Part shown: positions 16,361 through 23,665 of the stretch, one piece after another
How positions within the stretch are numbered: the stretch's first letter is position 1
Layout: every line of letters begins with the position of its first letter
Assembly: GCA_964408435.1 (NCBI GenBank)
Contig: CAYOZL010000006.1
Coordinates: forward strand, 1-62,035
DNA length: 62,035 nucleotides
Source: an uncultured Bdellovibrionales bacterium
GTDB lineage: Bacteria; Bdellovibrionota_C; UBA2361; SZUA-149; CAYOZL01
Direction: 5' to 3'
Position numbers and translations under genes: made by a program
Notes under the pieces: generated by a model
Told to the model about the DNA's origin: nothing
What the model saw: the letters and a program-made list of their open reading frames with translations, nothing else
Database searches by the model: none

Positions 16361-17125
16361 ATGTTTATTAAAAAAATATTAACCAGCTTTTTTTCAGTAC
16401 TAGCTCTTTTTGCTTTTACTGCTACTCAAGCTAACGCAATTACAATTGACCCTGCTTTTTTAATCTTTAATTTTGATAATCCTAATGTTGGAGATGATCA
16501 AGATTTAGCTGTTAGGTTTGGTTTTAACAGAGATGGTACTGGTGGCATAGACTTTGAATTAAATTTAAATGAAGAAGCTGGCACAGCATCTATATTCTTT
16601 GATGATCTTGGTGGTAGAATTTTCGCCGCTGATGACTTAGGTAGAGAAAATAGCTTAGCAGAAGTTTCTCTTGACCTTGCTTTTACTTGGACAGGTATTG
16701 TTCAAGAAGGTGATAGTCTTGTACTTAGAGAGCCTACTGGAGCTGGAGCTGTTGCAAGCTTATCTTCAGATCTTTTTGGTGACCAAGATGTTCAGTTTAC
16801 ATTGGGCGCTGCAGGCACAACTAACAGTGAGATATTTCCAGCTGATGCTGATAATCCAGTATTTTTCTATCTTGGGCCTGATGGAGTGCCAACATACACA
16901 GAAGGCGACTTGAATGGTTTTTCTACTTGGTTTGCGGCTAATACATTAGTTACTGCTAATGGTATAACTTATAATGTAAGAGGCGATTTACACGGTTCTT
17001 CGACTTTTAATGTTGGTGGGGCAAATTTTCCTACTGATACTACAGAAGTTCCTGAGCCTGCTACAATGTTGCTTCTTGGTTCTGGAATTTTAGGTGGAGC
17101 TCTTAGAAAAAAGAAGAAAGCATAG
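16361..17125 (+). CDS. PEP-CTERM sorting-domain secreted protein (paralog 1)
   Basis: 254 aa with an N-terminal signal peptide (…ATQANA/ITIDP). The C-terminus VPEPATMLLLGSGILGGALRKKKKA has the PEP motif, a TM helix and a basic tail. Confidence 0.85.
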   Translation: MFIKKILTSFFSVLALFAFTATQANAITIDPAFLIFNFDNPNVGDDQDLAVRFGFNRDGTGGIDFELNLNEEAGTASIFFDDLGGRIFAADDLGRENSLAEVSLDLAFTWTGIVQEGDSLVLREPTGAGAVASLSSDLFGDQDVQFTLGAAGTTNSEIFPADADNPVFFYLGPDGVPTYTEGDLNGFSTWFAANTLVTANGITYNVRGDLHGSSTFNVGGANFPTDTTEVPEPATMLLLGSGILGGALRKKKKA

Positions 17126-17145
17126 TTAGTAATATTATGTTTATT

Positions 17146-17173
17146 AAAAGCGAGCTTTATGCTCGCTTTTTTT
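17146..17173 (+). terminator. Rho-independent terminator after PEP-CTERM gene 1
   Basis: AAGCGAGC-TTTAT-GCTCGCTT stem-loop followed by T7. The 31-nt string AAGCGAGCTTTATGCTCGCTTTTTTTATGCC is identical to 18095-18125. Confidence 0.8.
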
Positions 17174-17211
17174 ATGCCCTAAACTTTTCAAACTATTTTA
17201 AGTTTTATTCA

Positions 17212-17246
17212 TACAGCTAAATACAGATTCGTACAGATCCTTACAG
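17212..17246 (+). promoter_or_regulatory. Four TACAG repeats phased at exactly 10 bp, upstream of PEP-CTERM gene 2
   Basis: TACAG starts at 17212, 17222, 17232 and 17242. A shorter degenerate version sits upstream of gene 1 (CATAG 16220, AACAG 16230, TACAG 16240). Confidence 0.5.
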
Positions 17247-17266
17247 ACGAGGGCAATTTTTAAAAT

Positions 17267-17282
17267 TTTTTTGAAGAATTAA
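17267..17282 (+). promoter_or_regulatory. Conserved 16-nt motif TTTTTTGAAGAATTAA, ending 70 nt before the PEP-CTERM gene 2 ATG
   Basis: Same 16-mer and same spacing as 16276-16291. Confidence 0.5.
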
Positions 17283-17351
17283 TGCAAGTAACATCGATTA
17301 TTCTACATAACAACAATGAGTTTTCAAAAGATTTAATTATAAGGAGTTGAA

Positions 17352-18071
17352 ATGAAAAATTTACTAACCAGTATTCTATCTGCTGCAGCATTTCTAGCTG
17401 TTGGGGTTTGTAATGCGAATGCTATAACTATTGATCCAGGTATAATGGGATTTCAGTTGAACTCAGCTGGGCCTGCTTCTGAAGATTATAGAATATATCT
17501 TGGTGAGCCTAGGGGGAATGCTTCAGTTGAGTATCTTACTTATGAGCTTAACTTTGATGCGGAAGCAGGAACTGCCTCTGTATTTTTTGATAATGTCTCT
17601 GGTGTAATATATGCAGGAGATGACTTCCGCGGGAATACTGCAGAAGCATTAGCTGATGTTGCTGTTAATTTAGCCTTTACTTGGACTGGTATAGAACAAG
17701 AAGGTGATGCGTTCGTATTAAGAGATCCAACAGGAGCTGGTGCGGTTGCTAATTTATCGTCTGATTTATTTGATTCAGACCTATCTTTTAGTTTGAGCCC
17801 TAGAGGCACTACTGGTGCAAACTACGATGCTGCAGCAGGAGATCCGGTATATTTTTATCTTGGACCTGATGGTAGAGACCTTTTTGCTGGTGATGGTGGT
17901 CTAAATTTATCTGCATGGATTGCGGCTGATGCACCTGTTATCATTAACGGAACAAGTTTTGCAGTTACTGGTGATTTTCATGGAAGAGCAGAAGTGCCTG
18001 AGCCTGCTACTATGTTACTTCTAGGTTCTGGAATACTAGGTGGAGCATTAAGAAAGAAGAAGAAAGCATAA
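17352..18071 (+). CDS. PEP-CTERM sorting-domain secreted protein (paralog 2)
   Basis: 239 aa with a signal peptide (…VCNANA/ITIDP). Shares blocks with paralog 1 (EAGTAS(I/V)FFD, LAFTWTGI.QEGD..VLR.PTGAGAVA.LSSDLF, FYLGPDG). The C-terminal 26 aa are identical, including PEP-CTERM. Confidence 0.85.
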   Translation: MKNLLTSILSAAAFLAVGVCNANAITIDPGIMGFQLNSAGPASEDYRIYLGEPRGNASVEYLTYELNFDAEAGTASVFFDNVSGVIYAGDDFRGNTAEALADVAVNLAFTWTGIEQEGDAFVLRDPTGAGAVANLSSDLFDSDLSFSLSPRGTTGANYDAAAGDPVYFYLGPDGRDLFAGDGGLNLSAWIAADAPVIINGTSFAVTGDFHGRAEVPEPATMLLLGSGILGGALRKKKKA

Positions 18072-18094: not shown

Positions 18095-18120
18095 AAGCGA
18101 GCTTTATGCTCGCTTTTTTT
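18095..18120 (+). terminator. Rho-independent terminator after PEP-CTERM gene 2
   Basis: Same stem-loop and T7 as 17146-17173. Confidence 0.8.
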
Positions 18121-18138: not shown

Positions 18139-18957
18139 CTAAATTTTAAATTTGCAAGATTGATTAACATCACAGTTTGCACATTTACTTTTTGATGGTG
18201 TTGCCATAGCAGGGATACCAGACTTTATTGATTCAATCTCAGAGATTAAAGAATTAAGCCAAATTTGCTTATCTGATAGATTTTCTATTTTATGATGTTC
18301 TTTATCTTTGCCGATAATAATAATCCCGTAAGGGGGCATTTTGTCTTCCATGAGCTTAAAATGTAGATACATTCTTATTTTATGCCGATCTCTTAATTTT
18401 AAAGTGCTAGGATTGATATCAACAGGGATAATTTTTTTATTTTCAGTAATTAAAGCATCGGGTCTACTTTCTAGGAAATCATTTGAAAGCAAGGTTGTCT
18501 CTATTTGCTTACTTCCTTTAATGGTTAATACCTCTACTTTTTCAGATAAACCCTGATTTAGGTTTATCTTTTTCATTTTCCTATCAAACAGGTCCCAGAT
18601 AAAAATTAGTAAGCCTAATAAGAATAATAAAGCAGCTAGCTCAAAAGGGATTTCTCCATTGTTTTTGATAATTTTAAATTTCTTAGGATCTAATAAAAAT
18701 ACAACTATAGTGAGCATCACTAGGAGTAAGTAGACAAGTTTCGCATATTTTCGCAGTTCGAAGGATTGCTCTTGATTTTTAAACCATTGTTTTTTTACTT
18801 CAGCGCCTTTAGAATTCTGCTTTAAATTAGGGGTTTCAGCTTTATCTTCTAGATTACTCTCTAAGTATTTTAATCTCCATGCCTCAGGACAAACAACATA
18901 AGTAGAGAGTTGTTCAGCAGTAATCTTTGAAGTGCTAGTCTTCAAATCGCTAGCCAA
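18139..18957 (-). CDS. Cas4-like PD-(D/E)XK / 4-Cys (Fe-S) nuclease-fold protein with two inserted transmembrane helices
   Basis: 272 aa, TTG start 1 nt after the gdh stop. N-terminal Cys in YVVCPEAWRLKYL plus C-terminal C259-x2-C262-x5-C268 give the Cas4/AddB-type cluster spacing. Core strands RPDALI...IIPVDIN and RMYLHF sit at the QxxxY position. Two hydrophobic helices (LVYLLLVMLTIVVFLL, LAALLFLLGLLIFIW) lie between the N-terminal Cys and the core. Confidence 0.55.
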   Translation of the reverse strand: MASDLKTSTSKITAEQLSTYVVCPEAWRLKYLESNLEDKAETPNLKQNSKGAEVKKQWFKNQEQSFELRKYAKLVYLLLVMLTIVVFLLDPKKFKIIKNNGEIPFELAALLFLLGLLIFIWDLFDRKMKKINLNQGLSEKVEVLTIKGSKQIETTLLSNDFLESRPDALITENKKIIPVDINPSTLKLRDRHKIRMYLHFKLMEDKMPPYGIIIIGKDKEHHKIENLSDKQIWLNSLISEIESIKSGIPAMATPSKSKCANCDVNQSCKFKI

Positions 18958-18958
18958 A

Positions 18959-21900
18959 TTATTTACCTAAGTTTTCTAATTGTTTATTAAGAACAAAAAT
19001 AGCGGGCAAGGTAATTTTATTTTTTTGTAGCTCATATAAGCTTTCTTTGTATCCCGTATATCCTTCTTTATGTTTTGAAAAGTATGTTTCAATTTTTGCC
19101 TTATTACTCTTGGCTTTTACTTTTGAAACTTCAAAAGTTATTTTTGCAATAGCTTTTTTCATCTCAGCTATGCATGTGCTCTTTGCTCCAATCTCCCAGC
19201 GGTCTGTTGCATCTAAGTTTTTAGCTTCTTGAGAGATTTTTCTAATTTGCAATGCTGAACTTAGCATCATGTAAAGCTTTGCTATATTAGTAGAGTCAAG
19301 CTTTTGTTTTTTAGAGATGTCAATTATGTCCAGGTAATCTGCAGAGTTTTTAATATTAGTAACTATAGAAGCTGTTTTCTTATTTACTCCAGCTTTTACA
19401 AGTTTTTTATATTCTTTTTCTACCTTACCTGCCTCTAGCTCTGGAATTAAATTATTACTTTGTTGAAATAGTTTAAGTAAATCTTTTTTATAGCTAGTAG
19501 CAAGTTTAGCGATATCAAAGTTTCTAGGGTTATTAGTAATAATCCATCTAATTGATAATTCGGTAGCTTCTTGAATTTGATTTAGTAGATCTAAGTGCTC
19601 TTTAGTAGAGCCAGCATTATCAATCTTGCTTAATTCTTGCTCAAGTTCAGTTACTTGAAGTATTTCTTCGACAGTTAAAAATGCTCTTATTACAGTTTCT
19701 TTACTTACTGAAAGTTCTTCGCAGGTTCTAACAATGAAGCTAGAGCCCATTCTTTCTACAAATAAGTTAGCAATAATTGTAGAAATAATTTCTTTTCTAA
19801 GTGGATGCCTAAGCACATCTTTTTTGAAATTTTTTGCGATCTCTTTAGGAAAGTAATTAATTAAATACTTCTCAGTACTTTTATCTTCAGAGATCTTTGT
19901 AGAGATTATAGAGTTGTAAACGGCTATTTTAGTGTGAGCAACTAATACGCATAATTCTGGCCTAGTTAGTCCAGCCTTCTTATCTCCTCTACTAGCAAGA
20001 GCCTCATCATCTGGTAAGTCATTTTCATTTCTATTTAATAAGCCTTCATTCTCCAGCATATTGAGTAAGCTACGATAGTAACGCAGATGCTTTCTGCTTC
20101 TTCTTACTGCTAAGCTTATTAGTTGAGATTGTAATCTGTTGTGGTTAAGAACCTTATCGCAAACTTCAAGAGCACATTTTTCTAAAAGTTTATTTCTTTT
20201 ATCTAGGCTAAGTTTTTTATTTTTTACTAGGGACTGAAAAAGTATTTTTAAGTTAACTTCGTGATCCGATAAATCAACTCCTCCAGAGTTATCTACAGCA
20301 TCTGTGTTTACCTTTCCACCAATTCTAGAGTATTCAATTCTAGCTTTTTGAGTAAGACCTAAATTGCCTCCTTCTCCAATTACTCTAGCATGAGTTTCCT
20401 TAGAGTTGATTCTAACAGAGTCGTTACTTGGGTCTCCAACTTCATTTTCAAATGAGGCTTTAATGTAAGTTCCTATTCCTCCATTCCAAAGAAGATCTGC
20501 TGGTGCTTTAAGAATAATCTTGATTAAATCTTCACCATTGTATACTCCAGGCTCACAATTAAGAGATTTTGCAGCATCTGCATTAATCTTAATTTCTTTT
20601 GCTGCTCTTTGATATACTCCTCCACCTTTAGAGATTATTTTCTTACTATAATCTTTCCAGCTAGAATGTTTTAAATTAAATAATCTTTTTCTTTCTTTGA
20701 AAGATTTTTTAGAATTTGGATTTGGGTCTATAAAAATATTTACATGATTAAAAGCAGCAATGAGTTTAATATTGTCACTTAAAAGCATGCCGTTACCAAA
20801 AACGTCTCCTGCCATATCTCCAATGCCAGTAACAGTGAATTCTTCTTTGTCTATATCTAAGCCTATTTCTCTAAAATGCCTACAAGTTGTAACCCAGGCA
20901 CCCTTAGCTGTGATTCCATATTTTTTATGGTCATAACCATTAGAACCACCAGAAGCAAAAGCATCACCAAGCCAGAAATTAAAATCATGAATTGCAATAG
21001 AGTTAGCAATATCACTAAAAGTTGCAGTTCCTCTATCTGCGGCAACTACTAAGTAGGGATCGTCGATATCGTGTATTACCGTATTTTTTGGTCTTACTAT
21101 TTTACCATTAACTAAGTTATCACTTAGTTCAAGAAGAGATGTAATAAACTTTCTATAGCACTGCTCTACTTTTGCTCTAAGTGCGTCTCTACTTGTTGGT
21201 CTATTTTTAACAACAAAACCACCTTTAGCGCCTGTTGGTACGATAATGGAGTTTTTTGTAACTTGTGTTTTCATTAAACCAAGAACCTCTGTGCGAAAAT
21301 CCGCCACTCTATCACTCCATCTTAGTCCACCTCTTGCTACGTATCCGCCTCTAAGGTGCACTCCCTCGAATTCATCTGCACAAACAAATGTTTCAAAAAG
21401 AGGGCGAGGGGAAGGCATTTCAGTGATTTCAGAACATTTAATTTTAAAAGCAATTCTGTATTCGTCATGTCCTTGAAAAAAGTTTGTTCTAACAGCAGCT
21501 TCAAAAAAGTTAATTAAAGATCGAAGCGCCCTATCATAGGCAAGATTGGTAACTGTTTTTAAAAGTGTCAGGTATTTGTTTTTTATTTTTTTTAGATTTT
21601 TATCTCTATTCTTATTATTTGCTCCTTTATATGCACTAGGGTCAAATTTTTCTAAGAAGTAATCAATTGCAACTTTTGCTGCCGCAGGGTTTTGGTTTAG
21701 TGCATTTACTAAGGTTAGCTTAGAGCCAATTGCCTTTATTTGCCATAGGTATTGAAGAGCTGTTCTTAAAACAGCAATATTCTCACAACTTAGTTCGGCA
21801 GAAATTATAAGACTATTTAAAGAATCGTTATAGGCTTTATTTGATAATGCTAGTTTTAAATTATTTGATATTTTTTCTGGTAGGTTTGAATCTATTTCGT

Positions 21901-23665
21901 TGTTGCTAAGTTTAGCAACAACAGTAAAAGCGTATATAGTATATAGGTCTTTGGATGTGACAGTGGTAACAGTTTCTCTTTCTATTGAAAATCCGATGTT
22001 ATCTAGAAAAGGTATAATCTCACTTAGAGAAATAGTTTCTCCTCTTTTGTATATTATTAAATGAGTTTTCTTAAATCCAGAAACTACTCTAGAGATAGAA
22101 GAGATTTCAAATAAACTATCTTTATCTATCTTTAAGATATTTTTTATATCGTATACTGCTTCTTTGGAGCTTCTTACGGATTTATAGTCTTCAGGAAAAG
22201 CATTAGAGAAGGTATGAAAAATTTCTTCAGCTTTATCTTCTTCAAAGCTTTTATTTAATTCATCCAGTAATAACTCTTCCCAACTCTTACTTAAGTTATA
22301 TATTTTTTGCTCTAGTTTTTTAGAATCTTTAGCAGAGAATATCTTAGGAACTAAAAAACTAACACTACCTAGCTCAGAGTCTCCTTTAAAAGTATAAATT
22401 TCACATGAATTTTTCTCTACTTTAAGAAATTTCTCAATCTCTTCCTTAATTAAAGCGTTGTTCTCTCCAGAGATTCTGTCTTTAGGAAGTATTAATCTAA
22501 AACAAGTAAATCTATTTAATCGATCTTTGTATATATTAAGTTTTTGTAGACCACTTTTTTTCAGCTCATAAATTATCGAGAATTCTTCTCTTAATTGAGT
22601 TAAGGAAAGCTCAATGAAATCAAATTTTGGTATATCATCTGCAAAAGAAATTAATTCTTTATAGTTGTGAGTCTTTGGAGGCAGTTTTTCGAGTTCAGCA
22701 ATTTTATTAATTCTATATCTAACTAAAGGAACTTTACTTGAGTCTTCTACAAACCCTCTATAAGTAATTAGGCCTAAAAAGATTTGAAATTTATTTTTAT
22801 CAATTTTAACGCAAAAACAATCTACGTAAGAGTCTCTGTGGATTGGGCTTTTAAGGGAAAGTTTACTGTGTGAAAGTACGTGGTTTTCACTAAAGAGTTT
22901 AATATCTTCTTTAATTTCTTTATTGATTGATTTGGAGTAATCTTTAACTTTAAATATGCCTTTAGTGTTTTTTGATCCACCTCTAAGCGTATATTCGCAA
23001 CTTCCTAGGAAAACAAACCCTGGGTTAATTAACCATTTAATAAATTCCCCAGCTTCAGATTGTTCTAATTTATCAACTTTTTTGTATTTATTATTTAGTA
23101 TGTGGCTGCTAGCATTTTCTGCTTGTATCAGAATCTCAGGGAATTCTTCAGTAACTGTAAGTAGCGTTTTTAAAAGATTTGAAACTTCTTTTTTTAGATT
23201 TACTTTTTTATTTTTAAGATTAGTTTCAACGTATACTAAAGAAATATTTTTCTCAGCATCGGAGGAGGGTATAATCGGATGAAGTTTGAATTTTTCCTCT
23301 ATTCCTAGTTTCTCAAAAAGCATAGCTAATGAATCTACTACAAACGGTCTATCAAAGATGATTGTTTTAAGAATAGTATTGCCGTTTTTCTCAGTAGTTG
23401 TCTCTACTATGAAATCTTTCTCTGAGCTTATGAAGTCTAAGTATAGAACATAGGAGTCGTGTGCAAGCTTTGTTAACTTTTCAATTTCACAAGTCTTAAT
23501 AAACTTAGATGAAGCTCTTCTAAATAGAGTGCTAATGAAATCACTTGGATCCGTTTTCTTGCTTCGAGTATTTTTACTTTGGCGTTTATTTAGTTTTGAT
23601 AATTTCTTTTTAATATCGTTTAATTTAACGTTGTTTAGCTTTACTAAATTCTTTTTGGCAATCAT
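18959..23665 (-). CDS. gdhB: Large NAD-specific glutamate dehydrogenase (about 180-kDa class)
   Basis: 1568 aa. Catalytic region RGGLRWSDRVADFRTEVLGLMKTQVTKNSIIVPTGAKGGFV and GDMAGDVFGNGML are characteristic of the Bac_GDH family. Confidence 0.9.
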   Translation of the reverse strand: MIAKKNLVKLNNVKLNDIKKKLSKLNKRQSKNTRSKKTDPSDFISTLFRRASSKFIKTCEIEKLTKLAHDSYVLYLDFISSEKDFIVETTTEKNGNTILKTIIFDRPFVVDSLAMLFEKLGIEEKFKLHPIIPSSDAEKNISLVYVETNLKNKKVNLKKEVSNLLKTLLTVTEEFPEILIQAENASSHILNNKYKKVDKLEQSEAGEFIKWLINPGFVFLGSCEYTLRGGSKNTKGIFKVKDYSKSINKEIKEDIKLFSENHVLSHSKLSLKSPIHRDSYVDCFCVKIDKNKFQIFLGLITYRGFVEDSSKVPLVRYRINKIAELEKLPPKTHNYKELISFADDIPKFDFIELSLTQLREEFSIIYELKKSGLQKLNIYKDRLNRFTCFRLILPKDRISGENNALIKEEIEKFLKVEKNSCEIYTFKGDSELGSVSFLVPKIFSAKDSKKLEQKIYNLSKSWEELLLDELNKSFEEDKAEEIFHTFSNAFPEDYKSVRSSKEAVYDIKNILKIDKDSLFEISSISRVVSGFKKTHLIIYKRGETISLSEIIPFLDNIGFSIERETVTTVTSKDLYTIYAFTVVAKLSNNEIDSNLPEKISNNLKLALSNKAYNDSLNSLIISAELSCENIAVLRTALQYLWQIKAIGSKLTLVNALNQNPAAAKVAIDYFLEKFDPSAYKGANNKNRDKNLKKIKNKYLTLLKTVTNLAYDRALRSLINFFEAAVRTNFFQGHDEYRIAFKIKCSEITEMPSPRPLFETFVCADEFEGVHLRGGYVARGGLRWSDRVADFRTEVLGLMKTQVTKNSIIVPTGAKGGFVVKNRPTSRDALRAKVEQCYRKFITSLLELSDNLVNGKIVRPKNTVIHDIDDPYLVVAADRGTATFSDIANSIAIHDFNFWLGDAFASGGSNGYDHKKYGITAKGAWVTTCRHFREIGLDIDKEEFTVTGIGDMAGDVFGNGMLLSDNIKLIAAFNHVNIFIDPNPNSKKSFKERKRLFNLKHSSWKDYSKKIISKGGGVYQRAAKEIKINADAAKSLNCEPGVYNGEDLIKIILKAPADLLWNGGIGTYIKASFENEVGDPSNDSVRINSKETHARVIGEGGNLGLTQKARIEYSRIGGKVNTDAVDNSGGVDLSDHEVNLKILFQSLVKNKKLSLDKRNKLLEKCALEVCDKVLNHNRLQSQLISLAVRRSRKHLRYYRSLLNMLENEGLLNRNENDLPDDEALASRGDKKAGLTRPELCVLVAHTKIAVYNSIISTKISEDKSTEKYLINYFPKEIAKNFKKDVLRHPLRKEIISTIIANLFVERMGSSFIVRTCEELSVSKETVIRAFLTVEEILQVTELEQELSKIDNAGSTKEHLDLLNQIQEATELSIRWIITNNPRNFDIAKLATSYKKDLLKLFQQSNNLIPELEAGKVEKEYKKLVKAGVNKKTASIVTNIKNSADYLDIIDISKKQKLDSTNIAKLYMMLSSALQIRKISQEAKNLDATDRWEIGAKSTCIAEMKKAIAKITFEVSKVKAKSNKAKIETYFSKHKEGYTGYKESLYELQKNKITLPAIFVLNKQLENLGK

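Follow-up and report, generated by a model that had tools for sequence, protein, structure and literature searches.

The Cas4-family nucleases known to date are soluble; they take part in CRISPR adaptation, belong to machines that resect DNA ends or are encoded by phages. The subject of this study is a gene for a Cas4-like protein of 272 amino acids (aa) on a stretch of 62,035 nucleotides (nt) from an uncultured Bdellovibrionales bacterium (assembly GCA_964408435.1, contig CAYOZL010000006.1, positions 1 to 62,035), which in its full length is called the window. We consider it probable, with some reserve, that the gene product is a Cas4/RecB-type iron-sulfur (Fe-S) PD-(D/E)XK protein tethered to the membrane, that this protein descends from an ancestral membrane nuclease which was rewired in the taxonomic order of the window, and that the gene stands behind a giant gene for an NAD-glutamate dehydrogenase (GDH) by synteny only. 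A Cas4 fold embedded in the membrane as a lineage-wide bacterial core gene would be a departure from the known soluble Cas4. The family bears on the role of nucleases at the inner face of the membrane, on the assembly of Fe-S clusters across two chains and on the migration or repurposing of PD-(D/E)XK active sites.

Cas4 (PF01930/DUF83, TIGR00372; structures 4IC1, 4R5Q and 8D3L, and Cas4-Cas1 7MI4) and the window protein have the same fold, cysteine pattern, order of motifs and size of the soluble part. In contrast to Cas4, the window family has two additional membrane helices after the GxxxH helix, a gene that is often split at this place and a distribution as a lineage-wide core gene. The orthologs in sister orders keep the Cas4 residues of GxxxH, D, ExK and QxxxY, whereas the window protein has K55, N182, R195 and H199 for His, Lys, Gln and Tyr. 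Unlike the genes of CAS-Cas4, the window gene is not located beside cas1/cas2 or a CRISPR array, and in this it resembles solo-Cas4, which likewise occurs outside CRISPR-cas loci (PMC5704561; M. mazei solo-Cas4, PMC12501428). The reference phylogenomic survey treats Cas4 proteins throughout as active, soluble nucleases; it states that the catalytic motifs are retained in every one of them and does not mention membrane forms (Hudaiberdiev et al. 2017, PMC5704561). A full-text search of the literature yielded no description of a transmembrane Cas4, in line with the statement of an initial annotation of the window, made from the sequence alone, that the protein matches no described family.

The same fold is found in the iron-staple nuclease domains of AddB, AdnA/AdnB, Dna2 and Exo5 and in the Argonaute-associated ACE1, where the cluster pins the N-terminal helix to the C-terminal end. 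These are soluble and work in helicase-nuclease machines or as partners of prokaryotic Argonautes, while the window protein is predicted to be membrane-anchored, has altered catalytic residues and has neither a helicase nor an Argonaute partner. The nucleocapsid protein of TTV1 has the Cas4 fold but no longer the catalytic residues, and its role has become a non-enzymatic one (PMC5704561); it is structural and viral, and it is not anchored in a membrane. SNIPE is a membrane-bound anti-phage nuclease which cuts DNA at its point of entry (Saxton et al. 2026, PMC13190303). The likeness to SNIPE lies in the concept of a nuclease at the inner membrane whose location decides which DNA it meets, which in the window family is a putative function. 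There is no relationship in sequence or fold, and SNIPE is a patchily distributed defence-island system, whereas the window family is a vertically inherited core gene.

Fold and putative Fe-S site of the window protein

In profile searches the window protein exceeded the cut-off of the Pfam model Cas_Cas4 (PF01930; 25.8 bits, cut-off 22.7) and, with residues 219-269 only, that of PDDEXK_1 (PF12705; 23.9 bits, cut-off 22). The PADLOC model of Cas4 matched residues 11-271 at 4.9e-11, and the NCBIfam model cas4 (TIGR00372) scored 33.2 bits, below its cut-off of 65. An AlphaFold2 model calculated with 29 homologs reached a predicted local distance difference test score (pLDDT) of 84.5 and a predicted template modelling score (pTM) of 0.79. 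In the model a pair of N-terminal helices (residues 14-31) is followed by two very long ones (49-100 and 105-134), in which the hydrophobic stretches lie, and by an alpha/beta core. Compared by Foldseek with the Protein Data Bank (PDB), the model matched at the top exclusively Fe-S PD-(D/E)XK nucleases; the top 30, with E-values from 4e-6 to 9e-4, included Cas4 (4ic1, 4r5q, 8d3l and 7mi4), Dna2, AdnAB, ACE1 and MGME1. The E-values for 4ic1 (SSO0001) and 4r5q (Pcal_0546) were 3.8e-6 and 6.3e-5, respectively; AddB and Exo5 ranked lower with weaker scores. PDB searches with the sequence only gave marginal Cas4 matches (E 0.1-0.6), which were used for residue mapping and not as evidence of homology.

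Taken together the profile matches and the model show that the predicted fold is that of a Cas4-type Fe-S PD-(D/E)XK nuclease. The initial annotation had read the protein as a four-cysteine PD-(D/E)XK protein of the Cas4/AddB type and had proposed profile and structure searches as a check; these recovered the fold. A helicase domain or a neighbouring helicase gene, as would be required for a partnership of the AddB or RecB type, was absent. The family is small: of 1.84 billion representative proteins searched exhaustively with HMMER, 135 matched.

The cysteine pattern that had been read from the sequence, C23 in YVVCPEAW and C259-x2-C262-x5-C268, proved to be without exception in the homologs. 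C23 was invariant in 173/173 and the three C-terminal cysteines in 168/168 aligned sequences, and in one alignment (A1) the whole segment V22-C-P-E-x-W-R-L-K30 was invariant. The four cysteines are putative ligands of an Fe-S cluster. One cluster of the [4Fe-4S] type would tie the N-terminal helix with C23 to the C-terminal CxxCx5C. The conserved motif also fixes the gene model: TTG is the only start codon of the window gene that retains it, the first internal Met is residue 81, and in the alignment the homologs start at the equivalent point.

Predicted membrane hairpin and split genes

A hydrophobic hairpin follows G51xxxK55 and precedes the catalytic core. Its two segments, the predicted transmembrane (TM) helices TM1 and TM2, had Kyte-Doolittle means of ~2.4-2.5 over 19 residues. 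Equivalent segments were present in 29/29 aligned homologs, in almost all of them with 19-residue means of 2.0-3.2, and the loop between the helices ranged from 11 to 65 aa. Hydropathy and model thus agree with the initial proposal of a two-helix membrane insert between the N-terminal cysteine helix and the core. The assembly of Fe-S clusters is a cytoplasmic process. Because both cysteine sites must meet, because the window protein has no signal peptide and because of the cytoplasmic assembly of the cluster, the hairpin would run in-out-in with both soluble parts on the cytoplasmic side. Cas4, AddB, Dna2 and Exo5 act on single strands or ends, and from this analogy such a protein would most likely process DNA on the inner face of the membrane.

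The window gene is fused, yet in 19/32 loci, taken from species-representative genomes, the gene was split into two adjacent open reading frames (ORFs). Almost all of these genomes are metagenome-assembled genomes (MAGs) labelled Bdellovibrionales, Bdellovibrionota or Oligoflexia. The gene is split in about half of the lineages. The N-piece of 82-123 aa carries the cysteine helix, the GxxxH helix and TM1; the C-piece of 183-248 aa carries TM2, the core and the three C-terminal cysteines. The split falls in the loop of variable length that connects the TM helices. The two frames overlap by 4 nt of the ATGA type (L015, L018, L020 and L024) or are separated by gaps of 3-43 nt, and stand-alone N-halves and C-halves were also recovered by the exhaustive HMMER search. 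On the best maximum-likelihood tree the fused or split state changed seven times, and at least two changes were forced by well-supported branches, showing that fission or fusion recurred at the inter-helix loop. In the split relatives the cluster would bridge two membrane-anchored polypeptides, and a single active site, like the single cluster, would have to be common to both chains.

Two subfamilies with different active sites

Active-site residues were mapped by profile alignment to the Cas4 proteins 8D3L and 4R5Q. In this alignment D167 corresponds to the Asp of motif II, D180 to the Glu and N182 to the Lys of ExK, and R195 and H199 to the Gln and the Tyr of QxxxY. The segments RPDAL (165-169), IIPVDIN (176-182) and DRHKIRMYLHF (190-200) are present as initially read, and the replacement of the catalytic lysine in D-I-N was confirmed by N182. 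The earlier assignment of Y197 in KIRMYLHF as the tyrosine of QxxxY did not hold.

The maximum-likelihood tree consists of two fully supported clades, A and B. Clade B comprises most of the class and reads GxxLHxxW, RPDAL, IPVERKP and DRYVAQLLVYM in succession, the complete catalytic set of Cas4. Clade A, the window's order, reads GxxxK/R, xPDAL, IPVDIxP and DRHVVxLLVHL and is marked by WDxFxR after TM2, with W121 and D/E122 defining the subfamily. At column 55, the His position of GxxxH, we counted 102 Arg, 40 His and 29 Lys; His occurs in subfamily B and Arg or Lys in subfamily A, there always, with K55 in the window protein. The full canonical set (GxxxH, D, ExK and QxxxY) was found in 0/90 members of clade A and in 32/43 of clade B, and the sequence D...(D/E)xK in 18/90 and 34/43, respectively. 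Position 167 is H, N, Q, T or S in 22/90 and position 180 non-acidic in 19/90 members of clade A. In the same clade DRH, P178 and the cysteines are each conserved in 90/90 and R126 in 87/90 sequences, and P166 is invariant or nearly so. By these alignments the active-site set is shown to be canonical in the sister orders and rewired in the window's order, and the apparent rewiring of catalytic residues is confined to this one sub-lineage. The two subfamilies amount to a natural experiment, textbook catalytic residues on one side and a conserved rewired set on the other. The window protein appears to be under purifying selection, its centre remodelled and not decayed; in the window clade non-synonymous divergence (dN) was 0.17-0.33 with saturated synonymous divergence (dS), and dN/dS was 0.18 for the relatives L054 and L057.

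If the counts in subfamily A reflected a loss of DNA cleavage in the window's order, anchor and Fe-S cluster might serve as a sensor of redox state, oxygen or iron or as a membrane scaffold, and WDxFxR, DRH and His199 would form a new binding site. The missing canonical set, the regular replacement of the metal-ligand His and the loss of acidic residues at positions 167 and 180 in part of the members are in favor of this explanation. So are the new subfamily-specific invariant residues together with the invariant cysteines, which point to selection on something beyond the classical site, and an inactivated Cas4-like protein with a structural role has a precedent in the TTV1 nucleocapsid protein (PMC5704561). 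Yet most members, the window protein included, have kept an acidic residue at positions 167 and 180, and members that lost K182 or D/E180 tend, in raw counts, to have K/R or E at position 195, as if the charges were kept. The fully canonical sister orders argue for a nucleolytic ancestral role, and no sensor-type partner such as a kinase or a transcription factor was linked to the gene in the examined loci. On balance we consider the loss of cleavage in favor of a sensor or scaffold rather unlikely.

The movement of charges was visible in two comparisons. K/R at position 182 and K/R at position 195 were anticorrelated (raw counts 2/76/28/38), and the window protein with N182 and R195 fits this pattern. 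D/E at position 180 and D/E at position 195 were anticorrelated as well (raw counts 3/114/13/14); Glu was at position 195 in 13/27 members without an acid at 180 vs. 3/117. Compensatory charge movement among positions 180, 182 and 195 is a lead from sequence comparison, not a result.

Under the explanation which we prefer, a membrane nuclease rewired in the window's order, the ancestral protein would have been a DNA nuclease working on the inside of the cytoplasmic membrane, with single strands or ends as probable substrates. The window version with K55, D180-x-N182, R195 and H199 together with WDxFxR and DRH may cleave by a non-canonical constellation, in which position 195 would have taken over the positive charge of position 182, or its action may be limited to binding of the substrate.

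Distribution, inheritance and conserved neighbours

All genomes analysed were MAGs, and that of the window is ~84% complete. The Cas4-like gene was present in 110/124 genomes of the class, with one locus per genome, and in 67/73 high-quality genomes. Because of this presence we regard it as a vertically inherited core gene. In family f6 (G011-G016), which belongs to the window's order, 6/6 genomes lacked the gene; five of them are >90% complete, and all keep GDH, ComEC and the small conserved gene c2 described below. This looks like a clean lineage-specific loss and, if so, f6 is a useful natural knockout for comparison.

The CRISPR gene cas1 was found in 20/124 genomes of the class, not in that of the window and never near the Cas4-like gene; a link to CRISPR was rejected for these reasons. 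The window protein had no match in PHROG, and this together with the core-gene distribution led us to reject an origin from a phage or a mobile element. Likewise, a defence island was rejected because the neighbours of the Cas4-like gene had no PADLOC matches. Within ~10 kb of the window gene there were no cas, recB/addAB or phage genes, so that the initial annotation was correct in this respect as well. Thus the Cas4-like gene is a single-copy, vertically inherited, CRISPR-independent core gene of one uncultured class of the Bdellovibrionota/Oligoflexia type.

The weaker matches of the exhaustive search were also TM-bearing Cas4-like proteins, some with 2-8 TM helices after YCYCPLSWW...GxxxH and others as one-TM C-halves preceded by a small ORF (85 aa). 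The distant matches P0140, P0156, P0164 and P0173 have the same layout, with TM segments between the Cys/GxxxH helices and the core. By their sequences the nearest relatives outside the class are therefore other membrane-embedded Cas4-like proteins, with the same insertion point and with split and fused variants. Compared with these, the window family has two TM helices, is restricted to one Bdellovibrionota-type class and, in one subfamily out of two, the window's own, has a non-canonical active site.

Outside the window's order the gene belongs to a conserved array of a divergent gene c1, the gene c2 and the Cas4-like gene; in most of the class c2 directly precedes the Cas4-like gene in the same direction. 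c1 and c2 stay paired everywhere, including the window's order, in which the Cas4-like gene no longer accompanies them. The c2 product (L019:7347-7856 (+)) has ~165 aa with the motif CxFxTACxRYAFWRLTNxQAPEAQYxIETAHIP. It had no match in Pfam or NCBIfam, and its AlphaFold2 model (pLDDT 80.6) had no significant fold match in the PDB. c2 was found in 122/124 genomes of the class and in 73/73 high-quality genomes, among them genomes without the Cas4-like gene; the copy in the window genome is located at G000:C56:13274-13585 (L053). The c1 product (L019:6408-7136 (-)) has ~230 aa and an N-terminal tail rich in Arg and Gly (RGG-like), and its gene is always divergent from c2. Its globular part is highly conserved (ESGNQRERIAIESG..LIDQFMLANP..DTRCLAMIDRELLDD..RDLLRDNGGAVRYGF); there was no family match and no PDB match by sequence. 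c1 was present in 118/124 genomes and was not detected in that of the window. Both were rejected as informative partners because co-occurrence with genes present in 122/124 and 118/124 genomes carries no information.

Several points weigh against a membrane nuclease that was rewired in the window's order. Four of the five hallmark catalytic residues of Cas4 are missing in the window protein, which may thus cleave nothing. The charge-swap anticorrelation was not significant when phylogeny was controlled, in an underpowered test with 3-4 independent pairs on supported branches. The density of Lys and Arg per residue was 0.26 in the C-terminal flank of the hairpin, 0.17 in the N-terminal flank and 0.15 in the loop, a positive-inside signal that agrees only modestly with the in-out-in topology. 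Fe-S binding, topology and nuclease activity of the family members are all things that we infer. With c1 and c2 being class-wide core genes, the gene context offers no consistent functional partner. Finally, the Cas4-like gene is dispensable because a whole family, f6, lost it.

ComEC and a possible role in DNA entry

A lead of another kind came from ComEC, which was present in 117/124 genomes of the class in a short form, with open frames of mostly 460-600 aa. Copies are located at L037:7088-8473, L058:4336-5868, L059:5856-7403, L060:7660-9231 and G000:C33:17680-18504. Long ComEC proteins carry a metallo-beta-lactamase nuclease domain. Four copies from the class scanned with Pfam had the Competence domain only and lacked the metallo-beta-lactamase domain; the three scanned copies that adjoin the Cas4-like gene have 461-523 aa. 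In family f17 (G035, G036 and G038) the Cas4-like gene is followed by ComEC as the next gene downstream, in the same orientation and 63-181 nt away, and in G045 (f22) ComEC lies divergent, 0.8 kb upstream. Adjacency was thus seen in 2 of ~33 families, and elsewhere ComEC was unlinked to the Cas4-like gene. Because ComEC is nearly universal in the class, only its adjacency is informative and not its co-occurrence. As a pointer to a role in DNA uptake this is a weak but non-trivial lead.

Carried further, the membrane Cas4-like proteins would be the missing nuclease at the cytoplasmic face of DNA entry beside a short ComEC. They would thread and process the incoming single strand for nucleotide salvage or to limit transformation, the cluster would join two membrane-anchored halves into one active enzyme, and the form in the window's order would be a rewired derivative that moved behind GDH and differs in how its substrate is bound or processed. 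We regard this proposal as speculative and unlikely to be correct as a whole.

A nuclease at this place could also act as a constitutive guard against phages and plasmids, one that cuts foreign DNA on entry and discriminates self from non-self by location in the manner of SNIPE. The nuclease fold held at the membrane and the service of Cas4 relatives in immunity would agree with this, and with SNIPE there is an example of a membrane-bound nuclease that cleaves phage DNA while it is being injected (PMC13190303). Yet the gene behaves like a housekeeping gene: it is single-copy, occurs in 89% of the class genomes, and its synteny with core genes is stable. No defence island surrounds it, it has no homology to SNIPE, and the window version is without the canonical catalytic residues. 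A guard function is very unlikely on this evidence.

Position behind the GDH gene

A single base (18958) separates the Cas4-like gene from the GDH frame, and the TTG start lies 1 nt behind the GDH stop as initially noted. The relatives L054 and L057 likewise have a TTG start 1-2 nt past the GDH stop. Because the genes are 1 nt apart with no minus-strand terminator-like site between them (one base could not hold one), co-transcription with GDH in the window is probable. Throughout the window's order GDH is located upstream on the same strand where both genes are present. It is directly adjacent in the window and in L001, L013, L018, L054, L057, G003, G005, G021 and G027, and 3-9 kb away in G007-G010, G017-G019 and G022.

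These findings would suit a functional module in which the Fe-S membrane protein regulates, anchors or redox-couples the giant GDH, as the narrow spacing with the TTG start, the direct adjacency in further genomes and the same-strand position within 9 kb in eight more speak for it. However, in many loci the pair is parted by a divergent gene of ~1200 aa with GT4 and TPR modules, which is the main gene in the gap of L002, L005, L008 and L011. In the other orders GDH and the Cas4-like gene are located on different contigs or, in G114, 21 kb apart, and the ancestral position of the Cas4-like gene is downstream of c2 and not of GDH. Among the 124 genomes 93 had both genes, 17 the Cas4-like gene only, 11 GDH only (including all six of f6) and 3 neither, where 92.3 genomes with both were expected by chance. 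A functional module with GDH is therefore extremely unlikely; functional coupling was rejected because synteny is confined to the order and because presence and absence are independent across the genomes. The position reflects a gene order inherited within the window's order and not a shared function.

Of the coupling to GDH put forward in the initial annotation, the spacing of 1-2 nt stood and is kept in the nearest relatives, and the functional link did not. The suggested check for co-occurrence with large GDH genes gave no signal, and adjacency to gdh was conserved within the window's order but not outside it. As this case illustrates, two genes can stand 1 nt apart through inherited synteny and nothing else.

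Features of the locus and adjacent genes

Table 1. Coordinates of the Cas4-like gene, its sequence features and the GDH gene in the window.
Feature	Position	Strand	Basis
Whole gene, 272-aa predicted membrane-anchored Cas4-like Fe-S protein; TTG start, TAG stop	18139..18957	-	ORF, Pfam, homolog alignment, AlphaFold model, Foldseek
N-terminal Cys helix, residues 12-31 (ITAEQLSTYVVCPEAWRLKY); C23 as putative first Fe-S ligand (codon 18889-18891)	18865..18924	-	alignment, model
G51-A-E-V-K55-K-Q-W58, position of the Cas4 GxxxH metal-ligand helix	18784..18807	-	alignment column 55
Predicted TM helix 1, residues 71-89 (YAKLVYLLLVMLTIVVFLL)	18691..18747	-	hydropathy, model
Inter-TM loop, residues 90-102, presumably periplasmic; gene-split site in many relatives	18652..18690	-	alignment
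Predicted TM helix 2, residues 103-121 (IPFELAALLFLLGLLIFIW)	18595..18651	-	hydropathy, model
W121-D-L-F-D-R126, predicted cytoplasmic end of TM2, subfamily A signature	18580..18597	-	subfamily alignment
PD-(D/E)XK (RecB/Cas4-like) alpha/beta core, residues ~138-250	18208..18546	-	Pfam, model, Foldseek, profile alignment
R165-P-D167, motif II Asp	18457..18465	-	profile alignment
P178-V-D180-I-N182, motif III; D for Cas4 Glu, N for catalytic Lys	18412..18426	-	profile alignment
D190-R-H192...R195...H199; R195 at the Q and H199 at the Y position of QxxxY	18361..18390	-	profile alignment
C259-x2-C262-x5-C268, putative three C-terminal Fe-S ligands	18154..18183	-	alignment
Upstream neighbour, 1568-aa NAD-glutamate dehydrogenase (ORF including stop)	18959..23665	-	Pfam, 1-nt gap

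The neighbourhood of the Cas4-like gene in the window consists of topA, pyrD, a crotonase gene, two PEP-CTERM genes, GDH, a YhdP-like gene, lpxB, msbA, kdtA and relA. The divergent gene with GT4 and TPR modules seen in relatives (L002:3655-7380 (-) and equivalents in L004-L016) encodes two GT4/GT1 glycosyltransferase modules and a long TPR array and is followed downstream by a GT9 heptosyltransferase-like gene; the window has neither of the two.

The two PEP-CTERM genes (254 and 239 aa; window 16361-18071) have the Cas4-like gene on one side and the pyrD-crotonase cluster on the other. In L054 and L055, two close relatives, pyrD follows directly after the Cas4-like gene in convergent orientation. 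Because these relatives do not have the PEP-CTERM genes at that spot, the pair appears to be a recent insertion or duplication in the window genome. Just beyond the second PEP-CTERM gene, at 18095-18115 and 24 nt from the convergent stop of the Cas4-like gene, there is a GC-rich hairpin followed by a T-run. Read on the minus strand the hairpin has no T-run; it probably terminates the PEP-CTERM gene on the plus strand.

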